A stretch of 64,000 nucleotides of DNA, from the NCBI GenBank assembly GCA_012841405.1, contig DUUT01000197.1, positions 6,400 through 70,399 on the forward strand, written 5' to 3'. Shown one piece after another: positions 8,111-43,297 of the stretch (position 1 is the stretch's first letter; each line of letters begins with the position of its first letter). The notes below the pieces were generated by a model that had not been told where the DNA came from, ran no database searches, and saw nothing but the letters and a program-made list of their open reading frames with translations. This DNA comes from Chloroflexota bacterium. GTDB taxonomy: Bacteria > Chloroflexota > Anaerolineae > UBA1429. Both the position numbers and the translations under genes were made by a program.

Positions 8111-9685
8111 ATGGGGCTGGGGGAACACGTGACGACAACGATGGATGCACACAGAGAAGAGCGACCTCGGCAAGTGCGTGATCGCGCGCGCTACAGTGCG
8201 TGGGCGTACCTCACCCCGCTGCTGGGGATACTCCTGGGGCTGGCGCTGCTCTACGGGCTCATGCGCGTGGTGCAAGCGCACTATGAGGGACGCATCTTTC
8301 CTGGTGTGTCGGTGCAGGGGGTGTCTCTCGGTGGCATGACGCCCGATGAGGCGCGCCACGCCCTCCAGGGCCTATTGGAGCCAGGATCGCCGGGGACGGT
8401 GGCCTTTACGGACGGACAGGAGGAATGGGTGGCCCCGTGGAGAGAGCTTGGGGTGACGCCCGATATCGAGGGAGCCGTCGCGGCGGCGTATGCCATTGGT
8501 CACGCTGACACCGAGGTACACCCCCGCGATTGGGTGCGGACCTGGCTCGCCGATCACCAGGTACAGGCACCCCTGGTGGTGAACGCGGTGGTGGCACGAG
8601 AGGCGCTTGCGGCGACCGCGGAGGCGCTGAATCGTGCGCCGACAGCGGGGCGGCTCGAACTGCGCGGTGACGAGGTGACCGTGGTGCCTGGGACGCCCGG
8701 GCGCGCGCTCGATGTGGACACATCCCTCGACGCGCTCCTGGCGGTGGCGCAGGGCGCGCCGGAACCGGTGTGGCTGACCTTTCGTGAAGTGCCGGCGCCG
8801 GAGCCAGACCCCGCGCCGCTGCAGGCCGAGGTAGACAGCCTGCTGGAGCGCACGGTCACCGTGTCGACGTACGACCCGGTGAGCGATCAGCGCTATGAGT
8901 GGGAGCTGGGCCGAGCGGCCATCGTCCACTGGCTGCAACTGGAGCTGGACGAGGACGGTGCGGCGCGTCGGGTCGCCGTTGACGACGAGGCGGTAAAGGC
9001 GACGCTGGCGACCCTGGCCGAGGACTGGACCGACGGGCGTGGGTTCCAGCCCGATGAGGCGGCCACTATCGTTCGGGAGGCGTTCGAGGGGGGAGGCGGG
9101 CGCGTGACATTGCGCATCGCGTACCCTGAGCGGCGCTATACCGTGCAGGCGGGTGATACGGCGCTTGTGGTGGCTGCCCGGCATGGTATGCCTTTCTGGC
9201 ACCTGGCCGAAGCAAACCCCGACGTCGACCTGAACGCCCTCACGGTAGGACAAGAGCTGATCATCCCCTCGCAAGACGTGCTGCTGCCCCACCCACCGGT
9301 ACCCTACAAGCGCATCGTCATCAGCCTCGCCGAGCAGCGCATGCGCGTCTACGAGAACGGTGCAGTGATCCACGATTGGCTCGTCGCGACGGGACGCGAC
9401 GGGTCACCGACGCTCCCCGGCGTGTTCCAGGTGCTGTCCAAGGAAGAGAATGCCTACGCGAGCCTGTGGGATCTCGAGATGCCCCACTTTATCGGCATCT
9501 ATGTCTCGGGGCCCGGGTTCACCAACGGCATCCACGCCCTGCCGATCCTGTCGAGCGGTCAGAGGCTGTGGGAGGGCGCCCTCGGAACGCGGGCGTCGTA
9601 TGGCTGTGTCATCCTCGGCATCCGAGAGGCGGAGGAACTGTACAATTGGGCCGAGCTTGGGGTTACGGTCGAGGTTCGTCCATAG
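8111..9685 (+). CDS. L,D-transpeptidase with PG_binding_4-like N-domain and LysM
   Basis: LysM YTVQAGDTALVVAARHGMPF...VGQELIIP. YkuD domain ...GIHALP...SYGCVIL. N-terminal TM segment. Confidence 0.8.
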   Translation: MGLGEHVTTTMDAHREERPRQVRDRARYSAWAYLTPLLGILLGLALLYGLMRVVQAHYEGRIFPGVSVQGVSLGGMTPDEARHALQGLLEPGSPGTVAFTDGQEEWVAPWRELGVTPDIEGAVAAAYAIGHADTEVHPRDWVRTWLADHQVQAPLVVNAVVAREALAATAEALNRAPTAGRLELRGDEVTVVPGTPGRALDVDTSLDALLAVAQGAPEPVWLTFREVPAPEPDPAPLQAEVDSLLERTVTVSTYDPVSDQRYEWELGRAAIVHWLQLELDEDGAARRVAVDDEAVKATLATLAEDWTDGRGFQPDEAATIVREAFEGGGGRVTLRIAYPERRYTVQAGDTALVVAARHGMPFWHLAEANPDVDLNALTVGQELIIPSQDVLLPHPPVPYKRIVISLAEQRMRVYENGAVIHDWLVATGRDGSPTLPGVFQVLSKEENAYASLWDLEMPHFIGIYVSGPGFTNGIHALPILSSGQRLWEGALGTRASYGCVILGIREAEELYNWAELGVTVEVRP

Positions 9686-9686
9686 A

Positions 9687-9975
9687 CAAAAACACAGAGC
9701 CTCAAGTGACCTTTGAGTATCCCTCTCACCAAAGACACCTGCCGAACGGAGCCCAGAACCTGTGTTAAAGGTTCTCATCTCCGCGGATCCGGATGGCTCA
9801 CCTTCACTCGAGCTTTCACCCGAGTTACAAACTTGCCAGACTCTCGATCACCCTTGCGGGTTGACCTTTCCGCCGACTCGTGGTTCATCAGGTGTGACCC
9901 TGATTCTCCACTTGCCATCCGTCTCACTTTGCTCAAGTGCTCGAGATGGGACTCGCCAACCTCTCGAGGCTCTGT
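9687..9975 (-). ncRNA. candidate structured ncRNA, about 290 nt, class unknown
   Basis: Sits downstream of a near-consensus promoter. A 13-bp helix joins the 5' end (9975-9963) to 9706-9694 and is followed by U5. Internal hairpins include an ACCC-GCAA-GGGU tetraloop stem. The next gene is convergent. Confidence 0.5.
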
Positions 9976-9981
9976 ATAAGT

Positions 9982-10010
9982 ATAATAGCAGATAGTGGTG
10001 GCTATGTCAA
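9982..10010 (-). promoter_or_regulatory. near-consensus sigma70 promoter
   Basis: Minus strand TTGACA (10010-10005), 17-nt spacer, TATTAT (9987-9982). Confidence 0.6.
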
Positions 10011-10079: not shown

Positions 10080-10107
10080 TTGACAGGGACCTCGCCTCGA
10101 ATATGAT
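10080..10107 (+). promoter_or_regulatory. sigma70-like promoter for the amidohydrolase gene
   Basis: TTGACA (10080-10085), 16-nt spacer, TATGAT (10102-10107). Confidence 0.5.
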
Positions 10108-10137: not shown

Positions 10138-10941
10138 ATGATCGTCGAGTGGAACGCGCACATGTTCAGCAGCGACCGGCAGCGGTACCCCTTTTTTCCT
10201 ACGGCCGTCTACACGCCCTCCGAAGAGCGGCTCGCTACCGACCCGGTGGGTGACTATTTGCGGCGGATGGAGACCGTCGGCATCGATCGAGCCGTGCTCG
10301 TGCAGCCCGAGCCCTACGGCGATGACCACCGCCTGGTGCTCGACTGCCTGGCGCGGGATCCGAACCGCCTCAAGGCGACGTGTCTGTTTCTTCCCAAGGA
10401 TCCGCAGGCGGTACGCAAGATGGAAGCGCTGGTGGCCTCCGAACCACGCATCATAGCGCAGCGCTTCCATGCCCATCGTGGCAAAGAGATGTACCTCGAC
10501 AGCTTTTGCGATGCACCCGTGCGCGCCCTGTGGCGTCGTGCCGGCGAGCTGGGGCTGGTCATCGAGCTGCATATCGGCCCCAACTATGTGCGGCAGGCGT
10601 ACGATCTCGCGCGCGAGTATGCCGACTATCCGGTGCTCATCGATCACCTGGCAGAGCCCCACCTGGGCACGGAAGCCGAGTACGAGGATGTCTTGGCGAT
10701 GGGCGGGTTACCCAACGTGACCATGAAGCTCTCTGGCCTGACGCACTTTTCCCGCGAGCCAGAGCCCCATCGTGATGCGCGTGACCTGGTGCGACGGGTG
10801 GCCGACGCGTTCGGGCCGGAACGCTTGGCCTGGAGTTCTGGCTCGCCTGCGATCGTCGATGCGTTGCTCGATGACTGGTCGGATGAGGATCGCGCGCGGG
10901 TCAAGGGCCTGAACCTCGCGCGGCTGGCGGGGTTCGAGTGA
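10138..10941 (+). CDS. amidohydrolase-2 family metal-dependent hydrolase
   Basis: MIVEWNAHMF start, TIM-barrel hydrolase-like sequence, GGAGGG RBS. Confidence 0.75.
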   Translation: MIVEWNAHMFSSDRQRYPFFPTAVYTPSEERLATDPVGDYLRRMETVGIDRAVLVQPEPYGDDHRLVLDCLARDPNRLKATCLFLPKDPQAVRKMEALVASEPRIIAQRFHAHRGKEMYLDSFCDAPVRALWRRAGELGLVIELHIGPNYVRQAYDLAREYADYPVLIDHLAEPHLGTEAEYEDVLAMGGLPNVTMKLSGLTHFSREPEPHRDARDLVRRVADAFGPERLAWSSGSPAIVDALLDDWSDEDRARVKGLNLARLAGFE

Positions 10942-14967: not shown

Positions 14968-16065
14968 ATGGCAAAGCAAACGGCGTTGTACGATCGGCAC
15001 GTGGCCCTGGGCGGAAGGATGGTCGAGTTCGCCGGATGGATGCTGCCGGTGCAGTACCCCACCGGCCCCAAGGAGGAACACCTCCGCGTCCGCGAGGCGG
15101 CGGGCCTGTTCGATATCGATCACATGGGGCAGATCGTCGTTCACGGCGCGGATGCCGTTCCCTTTCTGCAGCACGTGCTAACGGCCGACGTCAGCAGCTT
15201 TGAGGTCGGCCGTGCGTACTATGGGTTGATGTGCTATGACGATGGCGGTGTGGTAGACGACACCTTTGTGTACCGGCTGCCCGATCGCTACTTTGTGGTG
15301 GTGAATGCGGCGAACAATGCCAAGGATACGCGTTGGCTGGACTATCATCGGGCCGGGTTTGACGTGACGGTGGAAAACGTGTCCGATGCGACCTATATGC
15401 TGGCGCTACAAGGACCCAAGGCGGAGGCCATCTTGAGTTCCCTCTGCCCAGCCGAGCTATCGACTATGCCGTACCATACGGTCATCGAGACGGAGGTTCT
15501 CGGTGTGCCGACCATTGTCGGGCGTACGGGGTACACGGGAGAGGATGGCTTTGAGCTGTTCTTCTCTGCGGAGAGGGCCGTTGATGTGTGGGACGGCATC
15601 ATGGATGCGGGGGCGCCCCATGGGCTGTTACCCATCGGCTTGGCGGCGCGCGACTCGCTGCGCTTTGAGCCCTGCTTTCCCCTCTACGGCCAAGAGATCT
15701 CGGCGATGGTAGACCCCATCGAGGCTGGCCTGGGGTGGGCGGTGGCCCTGTCCAAGGGGCCGTTCATCGGGCGGGAGGCGTTGCTCAAGACGCGGCTCGA
15801 GGGCGCGCCGAATCGGCTCGTGGGGCTGCGCATGACGCAGGGCGGCGTACCTCGCCATGGGTACGAGGTTGTGGTCGGTGACGTCGTCGTTGGCGAGGTG
15901 ACCACGGGGATGTATGCCCCAACGGCGGAGGCGTTCCTTGCCCTGGCGTACGTGGCGACGGAGTACAGCACGCCGGGCACCGAGGTGGGGATCATGATCC
16001 GCGACAGGGTGCGCTCGGCGGTCGTTGAAAAGATACCCTTCTATCGACCGACGTATCGACGTTAA
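14968..16065 (+). CDS. gcvT: aminomethyltransferase (glycine cleavage T protein)
   Basis: MAKQTALYDRHVALGGRMVEFAGWMLPVQY and full-length GcvT-like sequence. Confidence 0.95.
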   Translation: MAKQTALYDRHVALGGRMVEFAGWMLPVQYPTGPKEEHLRVREAAGLFDIDHMGQIVVHGADAVPFLQHVLTADVSSFEVGRAYYGLMCYDDGGVVDDTFVYRLPDRYFVVVNAANNAKDTRWLDYHRAGFDVTVENVSDATYMLALQGPKAEAILSSLCPAELSTMPYHTVIETEVLGVPTIVGRTGYTGEDGFELFFSAERAVDVWDGIMDAGAPHGLLPIGLAARDSLRFEPCFPLYGQEISAMVDPIEAGLGWAVALSKGPFIGREALLKTRLEGAPNRLVGLRMTQGGVPRHGYEVVVGDVVVGEVTTGMYAPTAEAFLALAYVATEYSTPGTEVGIMIRDRVRSAVVEKIPFYRPTYRR

Positions 16066-16318
16066 GCCGTACTGCGGGTGAACGGAGCTTGAGCGGAGCG
16101 CTCGGCATCAGGAGTCAAGCCACAACAGCGCGCCATCATCTTGTGCGATTGAACCACAACCCAGAGCACCGAGCATGAAGGATTGGTGCAGAGGCGTGGG
16201 TTCCGTTTCAGCGGAACCCGTGGCCGGCTGAGGTCAGGCCGGGCGGCGACGCCCCGCAACCAGTCCTTCGCGCTTCCCAAAGGGACACGGTGGCCACCCG
16301 GGATGGGGATGTGGGTGT

Positions 16319-18718
16319 ATGGTGCAAGAGAGACAGGCGCGTGGGCGCGGCGTCGGGCTGGTGCTTGTAGGCATGGTGCTGGTTGCTGCCCTCGGGGGAA
16401 GCTGGCTGGCCAAGAGGGGAGACGCTGAGGGGCAGACGCTCGGCCTCCCACCGGGAACGCGCGTCGGCTACCACCATGCGACGGGGCTGGTGCGGTTTCT
16501 CGGCGCGGCGGCGGGCGAGGCGTTGGCCGAGTATCCGAGTCTGTCATCGGCCGAAGGCCCCGAAGGGATCGCGGAAGCCTTTCTGAGCGTGTACGGCGGC
16601 CTCTTTGGCGTGGCGGACACGCAGCGGGACCTTGCCATTCAGTCCACAACCACGGCTCCGTCGGGGCGGACCGCGGTGCGCTACCAGCAGCACTACGACG
16701 GCGTGCCCATCGTGGCCGGCGAGTTGCTCGTGCAGGTTGATGCGTCGCAGCGAGTGTTGGCGGCCACCGGGGAGACCGCCAGAGACCTCACCCTCGATGT
16801 GACGCCGCGGCTGGCGTCCGACGAGGCGTGTCGGCGCGCGCTGGAGGATGTGGCACAGGAACGAGGCGCCGATCCCCAGGCGTTGACGTGCTCCGAGCCC
16901 GAGCTCTGGATCTATGATCCGGCGTTGCTCGATGCGCCGGGGCCGCGCCGCGCGCGCCTGGTGTGGCGTATGGAGATCCGCCACGCGGACGACCTGTCGG
17001 TGCGCGAGCTGGCACTCGTCGATGCCCACATGGGCGTGATGGCCCTGCGCTTTAGCATGGTCGATGAGGCCAAGCTGCGGAGGGTCCATGACAACGCGAA
17101 TGACGCCTCTCGCGGACTTCCGGGAACCCTGGTGCGCATCGAGGGGGGGCCGCCGGTAGGCGTGACCGATGCGGATGCCGCCTACGCGTTCCTGGGGGAC
17201 ACGTACGACCTGTACCATCGCCTGCACGGCCGCGATAGTTGGGATGGGGCGGGGGCGCCGATAGTGGTGACGACGCGATATTGCCCTCCCGGACAGGAGT
17301 GCCCCTACAGGAACGCGTTCTGGAACGGCACCCAGCTCGTGTTCGGCGAGGGGTATGCACGCGCTGACGATGTCGTGGCGCACGAGTACACCCATGCGGT
17401 GACCGAGCACACCTCACGCCTCTTCTACTACATGCAATCTGGAGCGATCAACGAAGCGTTCTCGGACATTTGGGGCGAATTCGTGGACCTCAGCAACGAC
17501 GGCGATGCGGGCAACGACGCCGAGCGATGGCTGGTCGGTGAGGATCTCACCAACGGCCCTGCCCGCAGCCTGAGTGACCCGCCGTCTTTCGCGTACCTGT
17601 TTCCCGATACGGGGCTCCAGCCGTATCCCGACCACATGGAGCACCCGGGCTACTACTGTGGTCATCTGGATAACGGCGGCGTACACCTGAACAGCGGGAT
17701 TGCGGCCAAGGTGGCCTATCTGCTGACAGATGGTGGCTCCTTCGGCGGGTATGACATCGGGCCGTTGGGCCTGGCCAAGACGGCAGCAGTGTTCTATGAG
17801 GTGCAGACCCAGTTGCTCACCTCCGGGGCGGGCTACGCCGATCTCCACGATGCGCTCATCCAGGCGGCCTACAACCTCGTCGTCGATGGCGTGTTGACGC
17901 CACCTGACGTGACGCACGTCGAGCGGGCGGTGGCGGCCGTGGGGATGGATCGACACCCCCCGGCGTGTGCCGTCGCTGTGGCGCCTCTGTGCACGGAGGG
18001 CTCTCCCCAGGACGTCTTTTATGATGACCTGGAGCGTCCCGAGGACGGCATCTGGACGGCGGTTACGCTCGAAGGGGTGTACAACAGCTTTTACTACCCC
18101 CAGAACCCGAACGACTTGGGCTTGGACGCCACGTATGCGCGCAGCGGAGTCACCAACATCTGGGGCTATGACCAGGAATATATCGGTGACTATGCCATGG
18201 TCATGATGCGCGACGTGGTGCTCCCTGCTGGGGCGTACCTGCGGTTCGAGCATGCGTTCGCTTTTGAAGAGGCGCCCAAGTGGGGGCAAGGGTTCGGCGC
18301 CGATGGAGGCGTCGTCGAGTACAGTATCGACGGGGGCGCCACCTGGCAGGATGCCGGCCCGTTGTTCACGCACAATGGCTATACGGGCCGATTGGTCGAA
18401 GGGTGGGGGAACCCCTTGGTCGGCAGGGAGGCCTTTGTCTCCGCAAGCAGGGGGTATATCACGAGTCGCCTGGACCTCCGCTCGCTGGCCGGTGAGCGGT
18501 TTCGCGTGCGCTTTCGCATTGGCACCGATGATGGCGGCAACGACTATGGGTGGTTCATCGATAACATTCACATCTACCACTGCCTTGACGCGCCGGGAGC
18601 GGCGACAGGCACGCCCACGTTGGTGGAGCCTACGCGCGCAACGCCCACGCGGGCAACGCCCACGGGTGTGCCGCATCCGTGGTGGTTCCCTGTGGCCATC
18701 AAGGAGTATGCGCGCTGA
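16319..18718 (+). CDS. secreted M4 (thermolysin-like) metallopeptidase with propeptide and C-terminal domain
   Basis: VVAHEYTHAV (HEXXH) and GAINEAFSDIWGE motifs. N-terminal signal/TM segment. Confidence 0.9.
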   Translation: MVQERQARGRGVGLVLVGMVLVAALGGSWLAKRGDAEGQTLGLPPGTRVGYHHATGLVRFLGAAAGEALAEYPSLSSAEGPEGIAEAFLSVYGGLFGVADTQRDLAIQSTTTAPSGRTAVRYQQHYDGVPIVAGELLVQVDASQRVLAATGETARDLTLDVTPRLASDEACRRALEDVAQERGADPQALTCSEPELWIYDPALLDAPGPRRARLVWRMEIRHADDLSVRELALVDAHMGVMALRFSMVDEAKLRRVHDNANDASRGLPGTLVRIEGGPPVGVTDADAAYAFLGDTYDLYHRLHGRDSWDGAGAPIVVTTRYCPPGQECPYRNAFWNGTQLVFGEGYARADDVVAHEYTHAVTEHTSRLFYYMQSGAINEAFSDIWGEFVDLSNDGDAGNDAERWLVGEDLTNGPARSLSDPPSFAYLFPDTGLQPYPDHMEHPGYYCGHLDNGGVHLNSGIAAKVAYLLTDGGSFGGYDIGPLGLAKTAAVFYEVQTQLLTSGAGYADLHDALIQAAYNLVVDGVLTPPDVTHVERAVAAVGMDRHPPACAVAVAPLCTEGSPQDVFYDDLERPEDGIWTAVTLEGVYNSFYYPQNPNDLGLDATYARSGVTNIWGYDQEYIGDYAMVMMRDVVLPAGAYLRFEHAFAFEEAPKWGQGFGADGGVVEYSIDGGATWQDAGPLFTHNGYTGRLVEGWGNPLVGREAFVSASRGYITSRLDLRSLAGERFRVRFRIGTDDGGNDYGWFIDNIHIYHCLDAPGAATGTPTLVEPTRATPTRATPTGVPHPWWFPVAIKEYAR

Positions 18719-18809
18719 GGGGACGGCCGTTGCTGGCCGCACGGCGATGCTGCCCAAGACGGGTCGCCCACTTCGGCCATTTTCGGGCTTGTGGGATTGC
18801 CTGCGGCCA

Positions 18810-18838
18810 TTGACACCTACCATCGTGGGGGCTATGCT
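18810..18838 (+). promoter_or_regulatory. sigma70-like promoter about 270 nt upstream of gcvH
   Basis: TTGACA (18810-18815), 17-nt spacer, TATGCT (18833-18838). Confidence 0.45.
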
Positions 18839-19109
18839 GGCAGTATGGGGGGCGTTCAGAGGCCCCACAGTGCGATGCTGTGCCCAGGACGCATTGCTGC
18901 CTGCGGTGAGGCGAGCCATGGGGCGCGCTGCTGCATCTGCGAGATGGGATGAGCGGAACCCGGAAAAGTGCGGGGCGCTGAGCAGTCCACGGGGTGGATT
19001 TGCGCCGGATGACGGATTGATGCAAGATAGGCACGACTTGTCAGGGGTCAGGTGATGTTGTCTTGATCGCATTCCAGCCCTAGCAAGAACATAACACGGA
19101 GGACCGCAC

Positions 19110-19517
19110 ATGCCATTCAAGGTTGACAGCAGATGCCGATACACCAAGACGCACGAATGGATTCGCGTTGAGGGGGATGAGGCGTACGTCGGGATCAGTG
19201 ACTATGCCCAGCAGCAGCTCAGCGACGTGGTCTTTGTCGAGATGCCCGAGGTCGGCGACAGCTTTGAGAAGGGCGAGGTCTTTGGCGTCGTCGAGTCAGT
19301 CAAGGCGGCGTCGGATGTCTACCTGCCGGTTGCCGGTGAGATCCTCGAGATCAATGAGGAGCTGGAGGACAGCCCCGACCTGGTGAACCGCGATCCGTAC
19401 GGCGATGGCTGGTTCGTCAAGTTTGTCATTGAGGATCACGAGGAGCTCCCTACGTTGATGGATGCGGACGCATATCAGCAGTTCGCGCAGCGTGCCGAGG
19501 AGGAGGGAGCGCACTAG
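19110..19517 (+). CDS. gcvH: glycine cleavage H protein
   Basis: Lipoyl-lysine context VVESVKAASDVYLPVAG. Confidence 0.95.
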   Translation: MPFKVDSRCRYTKTHEWIRVEGDEAYVGISDYAQQQLSDVVFVEMPEVGDSFEKGEVFGVVESVKAASDVYLPVAGEILEINEELEDSPDLVNRDPYGDGWFVKFVIEDHEELPTLMDADAYQQFAQRAEEEGAH

Positions 19518-20858
19518 ATGACACATGTGCCCCACACCGAAGACGAAAAGCGCTCCATGCTGGCACGCATCGGCGTGCGTAGCGTCGAGGATCTCTTTGG
19601 CGATGTGCCGACCGGGTACCGGTTCCCGTGGCTAGAGCTGCCCAGACCCCTCTCCGAACTCGAAATGATGGCCGAGTTGCGCGAGATCTCGGAAGGCAAT
19701 GCCGATCTCCAGCACACCGCCTGCTTCCTCGGCGCGGGGGCGTACCATCACTTCATACCCAGCGTTGTCGATCACGTCATCCGCCGATCCGAGTTCTATA
19801 CCGCCTATACGCCGTACCAGCCCGAGATCAGTCAGGGGACGCTACAGAGCGTCTTTGAGTACCAGTCCATGATCTGTGCGCTGACGGGCATGGAGGTGAG
19901 CAACGCGTCGCACTATGATGGGGCGACGGCCCTGGCCGAGGCCGTGATCATGGCGATCAATGTGGCACGAGGCAGGCGGACCAAGGTGGTGATGGCACCA
20001 TCGGTGCACCCCGAGTATCGTGCCACGGCGCGGACGTACACGCAGGGTATGAGCGTGGAGGTGGTGGGGGACGATCGCCTGGATAATGATCTGCAGGCAA
20101 TGGTAGAGATGGTGGACGATCGCACGGCTTGCCTGGTGCTCCAGACCCCCGACTTTTTCGGACGGATCGTGGACCTGGCAGGGGTGGCGGATGCCGTGCA
20201 TGCCAAAGGCGCTTTGCTGGCGGTCGTGTGCAACCCCATTGCGCTGGGCTTGCTCAAGCCGCCGGGAGCGTTTGGCGCCGACATCGTGTTGGGCGAGGGG
20301 CAACCGCTGGGTATCCCCCTGAGCTATGGAGGGCCGTACCTGGGCTTCTTTGCCTGTCGAGAGGAGTACGTCCGACGGATGGCGGGGCGCCTGGTGGGTG
20401 AGACGATCGACGCTGACGGTAGGCGTGGCTATGTGCTCACCCTGTCGACGCGCGAGCAACACATTCGTCGCGAGCGCGCCACATCCAACATCTGCACGAA
20501 TCAGGGCCTCAACGTGCTCGCGGCGGCGGCGTATCTGGCGGCGATGGGGCGGTGTGGTCTGCCACAGGTGGCGAGGCTGTGTTACCATCGCGCCCACTAC
20601 GCTGCCGATGCGATCTCGGTGCTTGACCAGTATACGGTAGACATGGCGCAGCCCTTCTTCCACGAGTTTGTCGTGCACTGCCCTCGGCCGGTGGAAGAGA
20701 TCAATGCCATCCTGCTGGAGGAGCATGGCATCATCGGCGGCTATGACCTGTCCAAGGCGTATCCCGAGTTGGTCAACCAGATGCTGGTCTGCGTCACCGA
20801 GATGAACTCGGTGGACGAGATCGACGCCCTGGTGCAGGCGCTGGAGGAATCGGCCTGA
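19518..20858 (+). CDS. gcvPA: glycine dehydrogenase (decarboxylating) subunit 1
   Basis: Full-length GcvPA-like sequence that abuts gcvH. Confidence 0.95.
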   Translation: MTHVPHTEDEKRSMLARIGVRSVEDLFGDVPTGYRFPWLELPRPLSELEMMAELREISEGNADLQHTACFLGAGAYHHFIPSVVDHVIRRSEFYTAYTPYQPEISQGTLQSVFEYQSMICALTGMEVSNASHYDGATALAEAVIMAINVARGRRTKVVMAPSVHPEYRATARTYTQGMSVEVVGDDRLDNDLQAMVEMVDDRTACLVLQTPDFFGRIVDLAGVADAVHAKGALLAVVCNPIALGLLKPPGAFGADIVLGEGQPLGIPLSYGGPYLGFFACREEYVRRMAGRLVGETIDADGRRGYVLTLSTREQHIRRERATSNICTNQGLNVLAAAAYLAAMGRCGLPQVARLCYHRAHYAADAISVLDQYTVDMAQPFFHEFVVHCPRPVEEINAILLEEHGIIGGYDLSKAYPELVNQMLVCVTEMNSVDEIDALVQALEESA

Positions 20859-22453
20859 TGAACGCAGAGCACAACGACGCCAAGCGTGGTGTGGCGCTGC
20901 CGATGCAGCGCCGCGTAGAGCCTGTTATCTATGAGCTCGGGGCGCCGGGACGTTGCGCGGCGACGCTGCCACCGCTAGACGTGCCCGAGGCCGACCTGCC
21001 CCCGGCCGAGCTCTTGCGCGACGACCTCGACCTGCCCGAGGTCACCGAAGGCGATCTGATGCGGCACTATGTGCGGCTGTCGCAGAAGAACTGGGGCGTT
21101 GATGTGGGTTTCTACCCACTCGGCTCCTGTACGATGAAGTACAACCCCAAGGTCAACGAGGACGCGGTACGCTTGCCGGGCTTTGCGGAGACGCATCCGT
21201 ACCAGCCCGAAGACTCGGTGCAGGGCAATCTCCAGCTGATGTACGAGCTGCAGGAGTACCTCAAGGAGATAGGTGGGTTCGCGGCGGTCAGTCTACAGCC
21301 GGCGGCGGGGGCCCACGGCGAGCTGACGGGCGTCCTCATGATGCGTGCCTACCACGCAGCAAGGGGTGATGCGGAGCGCAAGCGTGTGCTGATTCCCGAC
21401 TCGGCCCACGGGACAAACCCCGCAAGCACCGCCATGGCAGGCTTTGAGGCGGTCGAGGTGGCCTCCGATGCACGGGGCAATGTCGACCTGGACGATCTGT
21501 GCGCCAAGCTCGATGAGCGCGTTGTCGGCATGATGCTGACGAATCCCAACACGCTGGGGCTGTTCGACGAGAACGTTCTCGAGGTCTCGCGTCTCGTACA
21601 CGAGGCCGGTGGGCTGATGTATGGCGATGGCGCCAACCTGAACGCTCTCCTCGGAATCGCCAAGCCGGGCGAGCTCGGGTTCGACGTCATGCACTATAAC
21701 CTGCACAAGACATTCTCGACGCCTCACGGCGGTGGCGGTCCGGGATCCGGCCCGGTGGGCGTGAGCGAGGCGTTGGTAGAGTTTCTCCCCGGCCCGATCG
21801 TGACGGCCGAGCCATGCATGATCGACACGATCACAGGGAAGCGACTGCCGGAGGAGGCCGCCAACGCTTGGGCGGTGGCTGACAGTGACTGGGATGATGC
21901 CTGCCGAGAGGGGCTGTGGTACCGGCTCGAAATGCCGGCGCGGTCGATTGGCCGCGTCAAGGCGTTCTACGGTCACTTTGGGATTATGGTGCGCGCCTAT
22001 ACCTACATCCGCATGCTGGGGGCGCGTGGGCTGCGCGAGGTCAGCGAGGCGGCCGTCCTGAACGCCAACTATTTGCAGGCGATCCTAAAGGACGTGTACC
22101 CGCTGCCCTATGAGCGGACGTGCATGCACGAGTTCGTGGTGCAAGGCAAGAATGAAGGCGCTCCCGACGTGCGGGCTCTCGACATCGCCAAGCGCCTCAT
22201 CGATTACGGCGTGCACCCGCCGACGAACTACTTTCCGCTGATCGTGCCCGAGGCACTGATGATCGAGCCGACAGAGACGGAGAGCAAGGATACCCTCGAC
22301 TATTTCGCCGATGTGATGCAGCGTATCGCCGAGGAGGCGCGCACAGAGCCCGAGACGCTGCACGAGGCGCCGGTCAATGCGCCTGTGCGTCGGCTGGACG
22401 AGGTACGGGCGGCGCGCAATCCGGTGTTGCGCTGGAGGCGGCCAGCGCGCTGA
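20858..22453 (+). CDS. gcvPB: glycine dehydrogenase (decarboxylating) subunit 2
   Basis: HYNLHKTFSTPHGGGGPG (PLP-lysine region). The ATG overlaps the gcvPA stop. Confidence 0.95.
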   Translation: MNAEHNDAKRGVALPMQRRVEPVIYELGAPGRCAATLPPLDVPEADLPPAELLRDDLDLPEVTEGDLMRHYVRLSQKNWGVDVGFYPLGSCTMKYNPKVNEDAVRLPGFAETHPYQPEDSVQGNLQLMYELQEYLKEIGGFAAVSLQPAAGAHGELTGVLMMRAYHAARGDAERKRVLIPDSAHGTNPASTAMAGFEAVEVASDARGNVDLDDLCAKLDERVVGMMLTNPNTLGLFDENVLEVSRLVHEAGGLMYGDGANLNALLGIAKPGELGFDVMHYNLHKTFSTPHGGGGPGSGPVGVSEALVEFLPGPIVTAEPCMIDTITGKRLPEEAANAWAVADSDWDDACREGLWYRLEMPARSIGRVKAFYGHFGIMVRAYTYIRMLGARGLREVSEAAVLNANYLQAILKDVYPLPYERTCMHEFVVQGKNEGAPDVRALDIAKRLIDYGVHPPTNYFPLIVPEALMIEPTETESKDTLDYFADVMQRIAEEARTEPETLHEAPVNAPVRRLDEVRAARNPVLRWRRPAR

Positions 22454-30753: not shown

Positions 30754-32658
30754 TCAGCGCAGGTAGCGAACGTCACCGACACGGCGGGTGACGCGTCGGC
30801 GGTCGAGCTCCTCCAGGAGGCTGAGGGCGTAGCGGCGGCTGGTATTGAGCAGGTCACGGATCTGGGCGACGGTGGCGCCGTCGGGTTGCTCGCGCAGATA
30901 GGCGACGACACGCGCCTGCATATCCGCCAGGGCCTCGGCGTCAAACACCACGTCATCGGACACCTTGACGAGGCGACCTTCCTCGAGCAGGTATTGGAGC
31001 AGTTCGGCGCCCAACGCTTCCTCGACTTGGGCATAGGTGGGCGGAGACGCAGGGTTGGCGCGAACAGCGGCCAGGGATTGGTCGACGGCGCGCTGCTGCT
31101 CTGCGGACAGGGACACGGCAAAGTCGGGCAAGCGCACGAGAGTGGCCGTCCCGGCCAAACGTCCCTGGCGCACGGCATGGTCCAGGAACTGATTGGCAAC
31201 GGCGGCGTCGAGCCCCAAACGGCTACGCAGCTCCTCCCGGGGCATCCCAGCGCGCAGGGGCCATCGCCGGTGGAATGTGGCCAGAATCTCACCGGCCCTG
31301 GACATCAGCCGCTCCCAGGCGTCGAGGGTCAGCACCCCGGCAGAGCTGCGGCTGAGGGACGCTGGAGTGCCTTCTAGGCCCAAGAGGACGACGCGCCTCT
31401 CCTGCACCAAAGCGGCCAGCGCCGGGGTGGCTTCGGCGCTAGAGAGGTGACTGCGGCGCACCAGCTCGCGCGCCTCGATGGGGCCCTCGCGGGCCAACGT
31501 CTGCAGGAGCACATCCTCGGGAGAGCCGTGGGCGAGGGCCTCCAGCTGGGCGATGACCTCGGCGCGAAATCGCCGGTGGCGGCGTCCTGGATGGGTCTGT
31601 ACGATCTGGCCGCCGCCGAGAGTAATGCTGGGGGAGGGGAGACGTACGATATAGTGATCTCCACGTACCAGCGCCATCGGCTCCGCCAGACGGAACTGCA
31701 CCCAGCCGACCGCACCGGGCGCCAGCTCTTCGGCGTCGAGGAGCCGCACATTGGCCTCGACACGCGCCGAGCCGCTGTGCACGTCGACCAGGGCATTGTG
31801 CTTGAGGGGCCACGGTGCATCGGCGATGAGGCGCAGCCGCGCGTCGACGAGCTCTGTCGGTTGGAGCCATCCGGGGCGCGTGAGTACCTGGCCCCGGCGT
31901 ACCTGATCCACCGTAACGCCACTGAGATTGGCTGCCACCCGCTGGCCTGGGGCGGCGGTGGTCGCGTGGACCTTGTGGGTCTGCAGGCCACGCACCCGGG
32001 CGGACTGGTTGCCGGGGATGAGGGCGACCTCTTCGCCCACCGACAGGCTGCCGTCGATGAGTGTCCCCGTGACGACGGTGCCGAACCCTGCGATGCTGAA
32101 AACACGATCGATGGGCAGGCGGGGCCTCTTGAGGTCGGGCCGTGGTTGTGCCTGATCGAGGAGTCGGTCGAGCTCGGTCAGCAACTCGGGAATGCCTCGC
32201 CCGGTCAGTGCTGAGACAGGGATGATCGTGGCGTTCTCGAGGACGGTGCCGGCCAACTGATCGTGCACGTCTTCTTGCACGAGCTCGAGCCACTCAGCGT
32301 CATCGATGAGGTCACTCTTGGTGAGGGCGACAACGCCCTGTGGCACTTCCAGCAGATCGATGATGGCGAGGTGTTCGCGTGTTTGGGGCATGACGGCCTC
32401 GTCGGCGGCGACGACAAAGAGGGCGAGGTCAATTCCGCCAACCCCGGCCAGCATGTTCCTGATAAAGTCCTCGTGTCCCGGGACGTCGACGATGCTGATC
32501 TCCCGCCCGGACGGGAGGGTCAGCCAGGCAAAACCCAGGTCAATGGTCATCTCGCGTTCCTGCTCCTCACGGAGCCGGTCCGGATTGATGCCACTGAGGG
32601 CGCGAACGAGGGTTGACTTGCCATGGTCGACGTGACCGGCAGTACCAACGACAAACAC
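30754..32658 (-). CDS. selB: selenocysteine-specific translation elongation factor
   Basis: MFVVGTAGHVDHGKSTLVRALSG...MTIDLGF G-domain plus a long winged-helix C-terminal region (634 aa). Confidence 0.85.
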   Translation of the reverse strand: MFVVGTAGHVDHGKSTLVRALSGINPDRLREEQEREMTIDLGFAWLTLPSGREISIVDVPGHEDFIRNMLAGVGGIDLALFVVAADEAVMPQTREHLAIIDLLEVPQGVVALTKSDLIDDAEWLELVQEDVHDQLAGTVLENATIIPVSALTGRGIPELLTELDRLLDQAQPRPDLKRPRLPIDRVFSIAGFGTVVTGTLIDGSLSVGEEVALIPGNQSARVRGLQTHKVHATTAAPGQRVAANLSGVTVDQVRRGQVLTRPGWLQPTELVDARLRLIADAPWPLKHNALVDVHSGSARVEANVRLLDAEELAPGAVGWVQFRLAEPMALVRGDHYIVRLPSPSITLGGGQIVQTHPGRRHRRFRAEVIAQLEALAHGSPEDVLLQTLAREGPIEARELVRRSHLSSAEATPALAALVQERRVVLLGLEGTPASLSRSSAGVLTLDAWERLMSRAGEILATFHRRWPLRAGMPREELRSRLGLDAAVANQFLDHAVRQGRLAGTATLVRLPDFAVSLSAEQQRAVDQSLAAVRANPASPPTYAQVEEALGAELLQYLLEEGRLVKVSDDVVFDAEALADMQARVVAYLREQPDGATVAQIRDLLNTSRRYALSLLEELDRRRVTRRVGDVRYLR

Positions 32659-32663
32659 GGTCC

Positions 32664-33911
32664 TTACTCTATCTCTTCCTCAAAGTAGCCGCGGGTCTCG
32701 GTATAGAGCTGCTCGGCGGCCTTGGCTTGGAGTTGCATGGCGCGCAGCTGTTCGCGCTTGAGGCGGTTGAACTCGGTGATCATGCGGGCGCCCAAGGCCT
32801 TGAGGCGCTCGTCCAGCGCGGACAGCGCGCTGACCATGGCTTGGCGGGCCTGGTCCAGGTCCTCAAGCTTTTGGTCTTGGGCGTTGTCACGGTGAATCTG
32901 GGATTCGAGCAGGCGCTCGCGGCGCTCGGCTTCCTGTGCCCAGCGGCGCTCGCTCTCGCTGTGCCATTCGCGGAGGTCGTGACGCATCTGATCCTCGGCG
33001 ATGCGCTGAATCTGGCGGAGCTGATCCTGCTGCTGGCTCACCTGGTGTGCGAGCTCTTGCACCTCGCGAAGCACGCGCCGATTCTTGTCGTGCTGATCGG
33101 TGTAGTACCGCAGCTGCTCGGCCCAGGTCTCGAGCTGATGCGAGAACCCCTCCATCTTGCGCGCCCACTCGGTCATCGTCTGGGCCCGATCGCGGTCGCT
33201 GCGGCGCTGCGTTTCGGCCAGCTCGGCTTGCTGTTTGGTGAGGTCCTCGCGCAGGTTGTGCATCTCGACCATCTGCTGGGTGATGCGTGTCATCTCGGTT
33301 TCGAGAAGCTGGATGCGCGACAGGTATTCGGGCTGCTCCTTCTGTGAGTCGCTGATAGCAAGCTCTACCTGGCCGAGGCGGACGACGGTCTGTTCGATAC
33401 GATCGGCCAGCTGCCGCGAAACCTCCTCGCGCTGCGCGATGCGCTTGGCCGTGTCTTCCTGAGCTTGCTGCAAGCGGAGGATCATCTCATTGAGACGCCG
33501 CTCCTCAGCCTGACGGACGGCAATGGACTGCTCCAGCGGCTCAAAGCGCTCGAGCTGTGCCTGAATCTCTTGGATGACACGCAGATCCTGCTCGTGCTCG
33601 GCCTGACGATTGCGCCAGAACTCGGTCTCGCGCTTTTGCACCTCCTGGCGCAGCTCTGACAGCATCAGTACGATCTCGTCCCTGGTGTTGCGCAGAGCCT
33701 CCTCGACGTCGGGGATGCGCAGCAGCTGCGCGTGCTGCTTGGTGAGACGGTCTTCTAGGGAGACGAGGTGCTGGGCCTGGTCGGCCATCACAACCTGCTG
33801 CTTGTCCACGATGTCGCGGAGTTCCGAAACGACGGCGCGCGTGCGCCTGAGTTCCTGGTCTAGCCAGGAGATGTTGGGACTGTCCTGCGTCGTGGGAGTC
33901 GGGTTCTTCAT
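32664..33911 (-). CDS. coiled-coil protein of unknown function
   Basis: About 415 aa, rich in E/Q/R/L heptad-like sequence. Ends 6 nt upstream of selB. Confidence 0.55.
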   Translation of the reverse strand: MKNPTPTTQDSPNISWLDQELRRTRAVVSELRDIVDKQQVVMADQAQHLVSLEDRLTKQHAQLLRIPDVEEALRNTRDEIVLMLSELRQEVQKRETEFWRNRQAEHEQDLRVIQEIQAQLERFEPLEQSIAVRQAEERRLNEMILRLQQAQEDTAKRIAQREEVSRQLADRIEQTVVRLGQVELAISDSQKEQPEYLSRIQLLETEMTRITQQMVEMHNLREDLTKQQAELAETQRRSDRDRAQTMTEWARKMEGFSHQLETWAEQLRYYTDQHDKNRRVLREVQELAHQVSQQQDQLRQIQRIAEDQMRHDLREWHSESERRWAQEAERRERLLESQIHRDNAQDQKLEDLDQARQAMVSALSALDERLKALGARMITEFNRLKREQLRAMQLQAKAAEQLYTETRGYFEEEIE

Positions 33912-34055
33912 CGATGATCCTCTAGGCGCTTGCCATGTGTTATGGTGATCTATGGCCAACAATTGGCGATCAGCGCTGCGCGTGTGGTCTCGCTGCAGGC
34001 GGTGGGTCTACATGGACCTGGATGACGGTCCGCGGTGCAATGGGTCAACGACAGG

Positions 34056-41401: not shown

Positions 41402-41732
41402 GCAACTTGAGTAGGAACACGGACGGCACACGCATCGAGTGGAACACGGCGTGTGGCGGAGAGAGAGGAGCGCATGGCTGGGGAAGGGGTGGCCACCCGT
41501 CTGGCGGATCCTACGCGTTCTGCTGGAGATGACTGTAGTGTGAAGCGCTGCTGATCCGTCGCGTTTGCCTAGCATGGCCCTCCAAAAGGGCGGGCTGGGT
41601 ACCCACAAGGCTATGGGCTCGCACCGTTGGCTATTGGTAGTTGACCGGTAACTCGGACGGTACGACGTTATTCTCCCATGCATATACATCGTGATGCTAT
41701 GCTCCGTCACGTTGCCGTGGCGGGGCTTTTTT
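41402..41732 (+). ncRNA. candidate about 330-nt transcript (ncRNA or terminated leader), class unknown
   Basis: Bounded by the promoter at 41368 and the canonical terminator at 41701-41732. No protein-like ORF on either strand. Confidence 0.35.
41701..41732 (+). terminator. canonical intrinsic terminator
   Basis: 11-bp stem GCUCCGUCACG / CGUGGCGGGGC (two G-U pairs), UUGC loop, then UUUUUU. Confidence 0.75.
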
Positions 41733-41986
41733 GTCCGTACGGGCCCGGGGAGCGACAGCATGGCTCGTGGGAGCGGCGTCGACGGATACAGCGCGCCCGG
41801 GTTGTAGCCGGACGGGCGCAGGGAAGGGGCGCTGTCGGGTGTGGCGATGCCGGGTACAGCTGGAACAGCGACAATGTCGTCACGCACAACGCGGGGTATG
41901 GCGGCAGCACGCATGCCGCAGTCTCATGTTCGAAGCGTCAGGCGTGCCATCGTAGCCTGGCGATACAGGGTAAAGGAGATCAGGAC

Positions 41987-42391
41987 ATGGGTGTGTTAAA
42001 GGTGTCGGCTCACTCCAAGTGCACCGCCGTGGCGGGAGCCATTGCTGGCGTCATCCGGGATTGCGGGCGGGCTGAGGTGCAAGCGATCGGTGCTGGCGCG
42101 GTCAACCAAGCGGCCAAGGCTGTGGCCATTGCCCGGTCGTACCTGGCGCTCGACGGCCTTGATGTTGTGCTGATTCCGTCATTTACAGAGGTGAGTATCG
42201 CCGATCAGGTACGCACGGCGCTCAAGCTGGTCGTAGAGTGCCGTCAACCCATCGAGTTCTCGAGCCCCGCTGGTGAGCGCCGTGGCAGTCGACAGTTTCT
42301 CGAGCGCGTGATGGGCGGCTCGCTCGAGGGGCAGGTGCATGGTGCCGCGCGGATCGCGTCGCCCAATGGTGAAAAGGGCGCGGGGGTCTAG
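41987..42391 (+). CDS. spoVS: SpoVS-family protein with about 48-aa C-terminal extension
   Basis: MGVLKVSAHSKCTAVAGAIAGVIRDCGRAEVQAIGAGAVNQAAKAVAIAR...ALKLVVECR. AAGGAG RBS. Confidence 0.85.
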   Translation: MGVLKVSAHSKCTAVAGAIAGVIRDCGRAEVQAIGAGAVNQAAKAVAIARSYLALDGLDVVLIPSFTEVSIADQVRTALKLVVECRQPIEFSSPAGERRGSRQFLERVMGGSLEGQVHGAARIASPNGEKGAGV

Positions 42392-42430
42392 GCACAAAGT
42401 AGGAATCTCGGCCAAAACGCGCAGGAATAC

Positions 42431-42459
42431 TTGACATCATGAATGCAATATGTTAGTAT
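42431..42459 (+). promoter_or_regulatory. near-consensus sigma70 promoter
   Basis: TTGACA (42431-36), 17-nt spacer, TAGTAT (42454-59), in an AT-rich patch. Confidence 0.6.
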
Positions 42460-42465
42460 AGTAAT

Positions 42466-42762
42466 GCAGGGTTCCGAGGGGCTGAGTGACCCTCATTGGA
42501 GGATCGTCGCTGACTGGTGAGCGACTCGATCGAGGGAAACCTCGATGGAGTGGTGAGTTGGTCGAATGGACGCGGGAGACCGCACCCGGGAAGCCAACAC
42601 GCAAGTACCGGCAAAAGTCGGGAAAACGGGCCAAGCGGTGATAGATCGTACTCGAATGGGGAGACCAAGGTCAATCGGGGCCCTGCTTCCTCCTGTGGTT
42701 ACCTAGAACGAGGGGCGACGTGCGGCCGGGACATCCGCAGCGTCGCCCCTCGTTTGTCTGTT
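42466..42762 (+). ncRNA. candidate structured ncRNA, about 295 nt, class unknown
   Basis: A 12-bp closing helix pairs GCAGGGUUCCGA with UCGGGGCCCUGC. Hairpins include AUCGAGG-GAAA-CCUCGAU and GCGG-GAGA-CCGC. CGAAUGG...GGAGACC occurs twice. Ends at a strong terminator, and the next gene is convergent. Confidence 0.5.
42707..42762 (+). terminator. intrinsic terminator (possibly bidirectional)
   Basis: AACGAGGGGCGACG pairs with CGTCGCCCCTCGTT (14 bp), followed by TGTCTGTT. Confidence 0.8.
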
Positions 42763-42784
42763 GCCTCCACACGAAACGCAGCGG

Positions 42785-43297
42785 TTACCACCGCTCCCAG
42801 TGGATCAGTTGCTCCTTGGGCTTGCGCAGCTTGGCCGGCATCTCGTCTGCTGGGTAGCCGAGCGGCGTCATGGCGATCGGTTCGACGCCTTGGGGAAGCC
42901 CAAACACCTCGCGCGCCGCCACGGGATCAAAGGCTCCGATCCAGCAGGTGCCCAGGCCCTCGTTGGTGGCCGCCAAGATGAGGTGGTCCATGGCGATGGT
43001 TACATCGACATCGGCATAGTGCTTGCCATCGCGGCGGCGCCAAGCCGCTTCTGGCACGGCGCAGGCGCAGACGACGAGCGGAGGCTGCCGGGCGAACCAT
43101 TCGGCGTTGTACACGCGATGGAGCTCCTGTTCGCGTCCCTCGGTCTTGATGACGACCAAACCGATGGGTTGGCGGTTCGCCGCCGTGGGAGCGAGCACAA
43201 AGGCGTCGAGTACGCGCTGGAGGACATCGTCGGGAATCGGCGTGCCGCGGTACGACCGCACACTGTAGCGCTGGCGAATGACATCGTCGAACTGCAC
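42785..43297 (-). CDS. nitroreductase family protein
   Basis: MQFDDVIRQRYSVRSYRGTPIPDDVLQRVLDAFVLAPTAANRQP. Confidence 0.85.
   Translation of the reverse strand: MQFDDVIRQRYSVRSYRGTPIPDDVLQRVLDAFVLAPTAANRQPIGLVVIKTEGREQELHRVYNAEWFARQPPLVVCACAVPEAAWRRRDGKHYADVDVTIAMDHLILAATNEGLGTCWIGAFDPVAAREVFGLPQGVEPIAMTPLGYPADEMPAKLRKPKEQLIHWERW

Follow-up and report, generated by a model that had tools for sequence, protein, structure and literature searches.

What is encoded in the comparatively AT-rich gap that separates two genes on contig DUUT01000197.1 of a Chloroflexota bacterium? The contig was analysed over a window of 64 kb, to whose positions all coordinates refer, and the gap, of 452 nt, lies between an L,D-transpeptidase gene (8111-9685, plus strand; domains PG_binding_4, LysM and YkuD) and an amidohydrolase gene (10138-10941, plus strand; domain Amidohydro_2). 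Its G+C content is 0.52-0.55, compared with 0.62-0.74 in the flanks and 0.656 in the whole window, in agreement with an earlier interpretation made from the DNA letters alone (hereafter the sequence-only reading), which had described the gap as AT-richer than its surroundings and had placed in it a stand-alone structured RNA of about 290 nt. We give a probability of roughly 45% to the reading that a structured non-coding RNA (ncRNA) of ~282 nt has its own, independent gene at this locus and would represent a hitherto uncatalogued family of uncultured Anaerolineae (Chloroflexota), present in this genome in two or more diverged copies; the same figure covers, jointly, our best guess at its mode of action, namely a stable protein-bound RNA whose terminal rod would be a shared handle and whose apical domain would be a variable module. 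Three members of the family are distinguished by names of our own: RNA-A, in the gap; RNA-B, elsewhere in the window; and RNA-C, from a distant Anaerolineae metagenome-assembled genome (MAG).

The RNA-A locus comprises the following features, listed in the direction of transcription:

9982 to 10010, minus strand: RNA-A promoter, with the -35 box TTGACA (10010-10005), a 17-nt spacer and the -10 box TATTAT (9987-9982).
9694 to 9975, minus strand: RNA-A, 282 nt, bounded by the outermost base pair of the closing helix, as delimited by fold, conservation and covariation.
9935 to 9975, minus strand: 5' strand of the terminal rod (P1a-e, P2), ACAGAGCCUCGAG-A-GGUU-GG-CGAG-UCCC-A-UCUCG-A-GCACUU, from the consensus structure.
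9741 to 9934, minus strand: apical domain, consisting of a junction, P3 with three hairpins, and then P9/P10, from the consensus structure.
9694 to 9740, minus strand: 3' strand of the terminal rod, which contains the motif CAAAGGUCACUUG common to the whole family.
9688 to 9693, minus strand: U-rich tract GUUUUU, the presumed 3' end, abutting the stop codon (9683-9685) of the convergent transpeptidase gene.

The promoter matches the consensus at 11 of 12 positions and its spacer ends in TG just before the -10 box; the exact arrangement TTGACA-N17-TAnnAT occurs at two sites in the window, compared with 0.02 expected. The predicted +1 of RNA-A is the A at 9975, 6 nt past the -10 box. From this base, ACAGAGCCUCGAG (9975-9963) pairs with CUUGAGGCUCUGU (9706-9694) to form a closing helix of 13 nt with one G-U, directly followed on its 3' side by GUUUUUG. 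The near-consensus TTGACA-17-TATTAT promoter and the 13-nt end pairing followed by GUUUUU had both been pointed out in the sequence-only reading; the latter is read in the sequence as described, and the former proved to have a conserved geometry in five lineages (see below). The gene downstream of RNA-A is convergent and the RNA is therefore not a leader, as had been argued before; a riboswitch or 5' leader lies upstream of the gene that it controls and on the same strand, and the next gene is convergent for RNA-A, RNA-B and RNA-C alike. The other side of the gap has a promoter as well, TTGACA-16-TATGAT (10080-10107, plus strand), which is divergent, lies 30 nt upstream of the amidohydrolase start codon, and has both hexamers kept in the four lineages with an amidohydrolase (minus-strand CCCATCATA and CCCTGTCAACG in the alignment); the gap therefore carries two back-to-back promoters.

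The 289-nt stretch folds with a minimum free energy (MFE) of -124.1 kcal/mol, compared with -96.2 +/- 5.0 for 200 dinucleotide shuffles, none of which was as good (z = -5.56). Besides the closing helix, the MFE structure contains a second long-range helix, in which UCCC(A)UCUCG pairs with UGAGA-GGGA, and four local hairpins (AUCAGG/CCUGAU, ACCC-GCAA-GGGU, CUCGGGU/GCUCGAG and AGAACC/GGUUCU). All of these elements, which the sequence-only reading had proposed by eye, were recovered in the alignment consensus too. The terminal rod, composed of P1a-e and P2, has 36 pairs and is interrupted by an A bulge, a GA/AA loop, an AA bulge, a second A bulge and a 1x6 loop. The apical domain opens with a 14-nt single-stranded junction, GAGCAAAGUGAGAC (9934-9921), followed by P3 (9920-9914 / 9797-9791), which encloses P4/P5, P6/P7 (GCAA loop) and P8 (GAAA loop), and by a fourth hairpin, P9/P10, at 9786-9742.

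Homologues of RNA-A were collected in five lineages (L006/L018/L016; L008; L010/L009; L019; L017). The window itself matches a 75-kb metagenome contig of the Joint Genome Institute (JGI), and the named homologues of its transpeptidase come from Anaerolineae/Chloroflexi MAGs. In L006, L008, L010/L009 and L019, whose transpeptidases are 72, 70, 68 and 62% identical to that of the window, an RNA-A homologue of 281-282 nt directly follows the stop codon of the convergent transpeptidase gene; further copies, in L017 (near-identical to the window), L016 (of the L006 lineage) and L018 (the GTDB MAG 'Anaerolineae bacterium isolate AnMBR.bin251'), were found with an exact 22-mer from the rod. In the alignment, the conserved stretch runs from the -35 hexamer to a few bases past the closing helix. 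The hexamers TTGACA/TAnnAT and their 17-nt spacing are invariant in all five lineages, the sequence of the spacer is free, and a T-run of 3-5 stands behind the closing helix in every lineage. In pairwise comparison the RNA is 67-88% identical and the final 1000 nt of the transpeptidase gene are 66-78% identical; the untranscribed spacer on the upstream side of the promoter reaches 45-57% and is essentially unalignable. On the L019 contig the amidohydrolase gene is absent and an aldo-keto-reductase gene stands on the promoter side, yet RNA-A is present; the RNA is therefore not tied to the amidohydrolase. A search with the C-terminal YkuD domain only, aimed at fragments on short contigs, gave no new lineage of the clade, and this domain fails to separate clade from outgroup.

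Covariation was assessed on an RNAalifold consensus of 87 predicted pairs, derived from eight sequences of the five lineages. In this structure 96.4% of the cells are paired (94.1 +/- 0.3% in shuffles, 29-44% in slid controls), and 15 of the 87 pairs are changed on both sides, compared with 6.4 +/- 1.8 in shuffles, 0 of 500 of which reach 15, and with 0-2 in slid controls. Each of the helices P3-P10 varies, by compensatory or one-sided changes, with pairing kept; examples are AUCAGG/CCUGAU, CUCGGG/CCCGAU and ACCGGA/UCCCGGU. Collecting homologues and looking for covariation had been the follow-up suggested with the sequence-only reading, and the outcome upholds its stand-alone structured RNA, at 282 nt and with compensatory changes in five lineages. 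The rod, the most conserved part of RNA-A, is near-invariant among its copies: none of its 36 pairs shows a double-sided change, and it is therefore neither supported nor contradicted by RNA-A covariation alone. Covariation supports a predicted fold in which an imperfect rod of ~36 bp bears at its end a domain of several helices, with hairpins that have GNRA loops and with internal loops rich in purines.

The same alignment bears on coding potential. Open reading frames (ORFs) of 48-113 codons occur in the window copy, and one could suppose that the locus encodes a small protein, either the 48-codon ORF MASGESGSHL... or another frame. The ATG of that ORF is lost and every frame contains stops in other lineages; the alignment has eight single-base indel columns and one 3-base indel, and its variable columns are spread 44/46/39 over the codon positions. 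Amino-acid conservation of the 48-codon ORF, which the sequence-only reading had named as the finding that would speak against it, was not seen. By sequence comparison RNA-A has no coding capacity, with no conserved ORF and no codon periodicity, and a small protein has next to no probability.

The position next to the transpeptidase gene calls for a different comparison, with a cis element of that gene, either a convergent antisense transcript or a bidirectional terminator for the 3' end of its mRNA. In all five lineages, including L019 with its missing amidohydrolase, RNA-A directly adjoins the stop codon of the transpeptidase gene, and no separate transpeptidase terminator was noticed by eye, the terminator scan having left out most of that gene. 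The overlap with the transpeptidase gene is, however, a few nucleotides at most, and 280 nt of covarying structure far exceed what a terminator needs. The L016 copy keeps the RNA although the DNA past its 3' end differs and the transpeptidase stop of L006 is missing, the contig ending 68 nt further on. RNA-B and RNA-C, which have the same promoter and rod, adjoin unrelated genes and carry their own terminators. We therefore hold such a cis role to be very unlikely.

Ends that pair over 13 bp could also be the terminal inverted repeats, recognised as DNA, of a miniature mobile element resembling a miniature inverted-repeat transposable element (MITE). An AT-richer interior, the presence of more than one copy per genome with similar ends, and the change of flank right past the RNA 3' end in L016 would fit. 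RNA-A nevertheless keeps its syntenic position between lineages in which the flanking proteins share only 62-72% identity, occurs as a single copy in the window by nhmmer and BLAST, and has a conserved promoter outside the repeats at a fixed distance; its conserved G-U and U-G pairs would be mismatched in DNA, and its internal hairpins covary. No target-site duplication was seen by eye in the flanking sequence, no transposase gene is nearby, and collections of plasmids, phages and viruses gave no match to RNA-A. A mobile element of this kind is accordingly highly improbable. Overall, leader, riboswitch, mRNA and mobile-element readings of RNA-A are excluded.

Some variation at the RNA-A loci was recorded separately. 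In L017 (804-1085) an A replaces a U in the 3' strand of the closing helix (GAGGCACUGU), breaking one pair, and two further changes affect P2 and the junction; these may be strain variation or assembly error. In L016 (14795-14862) AT-rich sequence (GCTTTTGTGCTACTCACTTACTACCCTCAATAATACGC...) follows the RNA 3' end in place of the transpeptidase stop before the contig ends, which could be an insertion or rearrangement exactly at the RNA 3' boundary, as is seen at tRNA and transfer-messenger RNA (tmRNA) genes.

RNA-A is one member of a family. The window has a paralogue, missed in the sequence-only reading, with these features:

42431 to 42459, plus strand: RNA-B promoter, TTGACA-17-TAGTAT, the only other exact TTGACA-N17-TAnnAT in the window.
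42466 to 42686, plus strand: RNA-B, 221 nt, matched by the RNA-A covariance model, with the same rod architecture and homologous P4-P8.
42706 to 42765, plus strand: intrinsic terminator of RNA-B, a GC-rich hairpin followed by UUUGUCUGUU, 20 nt past the rod.

RNA-B lies 33 kb from RNA-A, its promoter following spoVS (41987-42391) and facing a convergent nitroreductase gene (42785-43297, minus strand). Its predicted +1 is the G at 42466; GCAGGGUUCCGA, which begins 6 nt past the -10 box, pairs with UCGGGGCCCUGC 200 nt downstream, and the 221-nt core has an MFE z of -7.85. The covariance model built from the RNA-A alignment matches RNA-B end to end with 54.5 bits (E ~3e-15), the best unrelated match in the window reaching 6.7 bits. 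The model alignment of RNA-A and RNA-B pairs the rod, P4/P5, P6/P7 with its purine-rich internal loop, and P8; P9/P10 are missing from RNA-B. The 20-nt linker between rod and terminator holds CUUCCUCCU, an anti-Shine-Dalgarno-like string.

With the same covariance model a more distant relative was reached in an Anaerolineae MAG (L025/L026). RNA-C is 282 nt long, as is RNA-A, and adjoins a convergent nitroreductase gene, the next one downstream, whose product is 70% identical to that of the window. Its promoter, TTGACA-17-TATGAT, has TG in front of the -10 box; the RNA starts 6 nt past that box and has its own hairpin terminator. It shares the 11-mer CGAGAGGUUGG with the window copy of RNA-A and the 13-mer CAAAGGUCACUUG with every RNA-A copy; AAGGUCA is identical in RNA-A, RNA-B and RNA-C, and in all of them the closing helix starts 6-7 nt past the -10 box. 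The interior of RNA-C is not alignable, and the rod is the only part clearly common to it and the others.

It is across these three members that the rod becomes informative. Its outer 17 pairs are 98.3% paired, with double-sided changes at three positions, namely 1 (A-U/G-C), 5 (A-U/G-C) and 9 (U-A/C-G/A-U), compared with none in slid controls, and the first 18 nt of its 5' strand covary with the 3' strand. Features other than Watson-Crick pairs are kept as well: an A/A or GG/AA loop, the G-U in CGA/UUG, and tandem U-G wobbles, the wobble-rich helix reading GAUU, GGUU or GGCU over GGUC, with 2-3 wobbles in RNA-A and RNA-C and two in RNA-B. A sequence-agnostic search over 286 kb, which required a near-consensus promoter and, 4-10 nt behind it, the start of a 12-bp helix that closes a span of 160-350 nt, returned only members of the family.

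The neighbours of the copies are L,D-transpeptidase/amidohydrolase, L,D-transpeptidase/aldo-keto reductase (L019), spoVS/nitroreductase and nitroreductase/ABC transporter. Two gene arrangements on other contigs touch these loci. In L027 (639-738) the nitroreductase gene directly abuts a gene for an NAD_binding_2 dehydrogenase; in the window (41497-42784) the ~1.3 kb between those two genes holds a 490-nt gap, spoVS (with a 50-aa C-terminal extension) and RNA-B, and the unit of spoVS and RNA-B is therefore an insertion or deletion relative to L027. On the outgroup Anaerolineae contig L020 (5979-8378), an orthologue-like L,D-transpeptidase gene and a gene for a 170-aa nitroreductase are convergent neighbours with a gap of 109 nt and no RNA, and in the window the counterparts of this pair flank RNA-A (transpeptidase) and RNA-B (nitroreductase). 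This adjacency may be a coincidence or a trace of the origin of the two RNA loci.

Is the family a known one? Rfam 15 gave no match in the whole window at the gathering threshold; at E up to 10, applied to the locus, the four homologous loci and RNA-B, only microRNA, small nucleolar RNA and long non-coding RNA noise appeared, with no match to the 6S models (RF00013 and related). RNA-B belongs to no Rfam family, and the Rfam models for Y_RNA, RNase P, signal recognition particle (SRP) RNA and tmRNA gave no match, nor did that for raiA up to E = 10. ARAGORN reported neither tRNA nor tmRNA in the whole window. A comparison with Rfam had been proposed together with the sequence-only reading, which saw no marks of RNase P, SRP or tmRNA in the gap; these searches bear it out, no known housekeeping RNA being matched. 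No described ncRNA of such a kind from Anaerolineae/Chloroflexota was found in the literature.

The main rival to our reading is a regulator of the 6S (ssrS) or Ms1 type, which would mimic a nucleic acid and thereby capture and sequester RNA polymerase, either as holoenzyme or as core, and in which the paralogues would parallel 6S-1 and 6S-2 of Bacillus. Known 6S RNA binds the sigma-70 holoenzyme and templates pRNA synthesis, and Ms1 binds the core enzyme. The family resembles these RNAs in being highly structured and stand-alone, with paired 5' and 3' ends, a strong promoter, probably strong expression, and more than one copy. Its length of 221-282 nt overlaps the ranges of 6S (153-237 nt; PMC7726162), within which RNA-B (221 nt) falls and outside which RNA-A and RNA-C (282 nt) fall, and of Ms1 (~230-300 nt; PMC9130861). 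The 14-nt single-stranded 5' junction of RNA-A, opposite the P9/P10 hairpin, could be read as a central bubble, and both known families are hard to detect by sequence, their homologues escaping sequence and Rfam searches at large distances (PMC9130861). The layout, however, is not the rod, central bubble and rod of an open-promoter mimic: RNA-B is bubble-free, its rod running for ~48 nt per strand into a multi-way junction, and what lies beyond the junction is a branched domain of three hairpins, not an internal stem with a terminal loop. Ms1 has short separate 5' and 3' hairpins and a central bubble (PMC9130861); here the ends pair over 13 bp, although the length fits. Ms1 is also known by its actinobacterial synteny, and this organism belongs to the Chloroflexota. 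The closing stem of 6S is its least sequence-constrained part, the opposite of the terminal rod here, which is the most conserved sequence. The absence of any 6S match and the branched apical domain agree with the view, already taken in the sequence-only reading, that the RNA is only loosely 6S-like, and we consider a 6S/Ms1-type regulator unlikely.

A second alternative would make the apical domain the active part: it could act as a ribozyme, bind a ligand or a metal, or self-assemble like raiA, OLE or ROOL, and the rod would only clamp and protect the ends. In favour of this are the several helices of the domain that covary, the GNRA tetraloops, of which each member has two to four, and the conservation of both junction strands and purine-rich internal loops (GAAAGG / CCGAGAG around P7), such complexity being typical of RNAs with tertiary folds, and orphan RNAs of the raiA/OLE type are likewise multi-helix RNAs with GNRA loops, conserved junction nucleotides, their own promoter and a lineage-restricted distribution. 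For raiA RNA, six stems (P1-P6), two pseudoknots and 51 positions of high conservation are described, along with a distribution centred on Bacillota and Actinomycetota to which Anaerolineae contribute few examples, if any (PMC10861870). In the present family, by contrast, the conserved core is the terminal rod and not the junctions, and the apical domain is the least conserved part, P9/P10 being absent from RNA-B and the interior of RNA-C unalignable; no ribozyme or riboswitch family was matched, and the hammerhead-like UGAUGAG in the rod is not kept in the window copy (UGGCGAG). We rate this alternative as distinctly improbable. A hammerhead core was also tried as a candidate on the string UUGAUGAGUCCC, which resembles one, and was rejected, as a GAAA/stem II context is lacking and the string is UUGGCGAGUCCC in the window copy.

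The modular organisation that we favour resembles that of the Y RNAs, including the bacterial YrlA and YrlB, which tether the proteins Ro60 or Rsr. Like these, the family is stand-alone, with its 5' and 3' ends in a long stem (here the rod of ~36 bp), the stem is conserved and the remainder varies between paralogues, and there are several paralogues per genome; close to the 5' end, a C-G / G-U / A-U step (CGA over UUG) is reminiscent of the Y-RNA helix GGUCCGA/UUGAC. The members are nevertheless 221-282 nt long, compared with 80-130 nt for characterised Y RNAs (PMC4201824), and the Rsr-binding motif of bacterial Y RNAs near the 5' end, GNCGAAN0-1G (PMC4201824), does not fit. The family reads nnCGAGRG (RNA-A CUCGAGAG, RNA-B UCCGAGGG, RNA-C CACGAGAG), leaving the first G and the second A unmatched. 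Neither a tRNA-like module (by ARAGORN) nor an rsr/TROVE gene was found in the 64-kb window. On its sequence features, the family resembles the class of stand-alone structured RNAs with paired ends and is not a demonstrable member of any catalogued family.

In the mechanism that we propose as part of our reading, a sigma-70-type consensus promoter would start transcription at the first base of the terminal rod; the transcript would end with the rod and a U-run in RNA-A, and at a separate hairpin terminator in RNA-B and RNA-C. The RNA would act in trans as a stable, abundant, protein-bound molecule, its terminal rod serving as a handle for docking to a common partner protein and for end protection, and its apical domain, which differs among paralogues, as a variable functional module. 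The rod is common to all members and the apical domains differ, and a modular ribonucleoprotein is therefore favoured; the differing neighbour genes of the copies and the lack of a co-directional downstream gene count for action in trans. In a bolder version, which we regard as doubtful, RNA-A and RNA-B would be the first members of a new bacterial class of ribonucleoprotein RNA, of housekeeping type and with a wide distribution in Anaerolineae, whose invariant wobble-rich rod recruits a dedicated protein and whose interchangeable apical domains give each paralogue its own target or effector, so that it would work like Y RNA, 6S or Ms1 and be unrelated to them.

Several observations weigh against the reading that we prefer. 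The promoter, +1 and 3' end of RNA-A are all inferred from sequence, and a terminator scan found no classical hairpin terminator at its 3' end. The family rests on seven distinct sequences and the E-values of the model are rough; RNA-C, at 12.8 bits (E ~0.004), is borderline, near the significance limit of this roughly calibrated model. The distribution of the family looks patchy: no RNA-A was found at transpeptidase loci whose homologue is at most 53% identical (L011-L015, L020, L021), no RNA at nitroreductase loci of 74% and 78% identity (L022-L024, L027), and close outgroups are without the RNA at both syntenic positions. The exact 22-mer from the rod, GAGAGGGANACTCAAAGGTCAC, a clade-specific probe stricter than the family-wide motif, occurs in only two metagenome loci and one GTDB genome, all of the same clade. 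No partner protein emerged among the 48 ORFs of the window, which include no gene for an obvious RNA-binding protein, a TROVE protein, a reverse transcriptase, a Cas protein or a transposase. The high sequence conservation of the rod could, moreover, be due to pairing with RNA or with DNA, or to a processing signal.

Anaerobic digesters and sediments harbour Anaerolineae in abundance, yet to our knowledge these bacteria have hardly been studied at the RNA level. A covarying RNA of 220-280 nt that is driven by its own promoter, occurs twice per genome and matches no Rfam family would be an addition to the short list of orphan structured bacterial RNAs. Its sharply defined rod module could be used both as bait for the partner and as the seed of a covariance model across the Chloroflexota. 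Should the partner be RNA polymerase, Ro or a new protein, this would reveal by what means the phylum occupies a regulatory niche that belongs elsewhere to 6S, Ms1 or Y RNAs.

Two other regions of the window were noted. Rfam gave no glycine riboswitch anywhere in the window, the gaps of 135 nt and 391 nt that precede gcvT and gcvH being covered too; these genes form, with gcvPA and gcvPB, a cluster at 14968-22453 that is interrupted by a gene for an M4 (thermolysin-like) peptidase (16319-18718). Likewise, ARAGORN reported no selenocysteine tRNA (tRNA-Sec) in the window, which at 30754-33962 (minus strand) carries a gene for the selenocysteine elongation factor SelB, adjoining a 432-aa ORF without a Pfam match.

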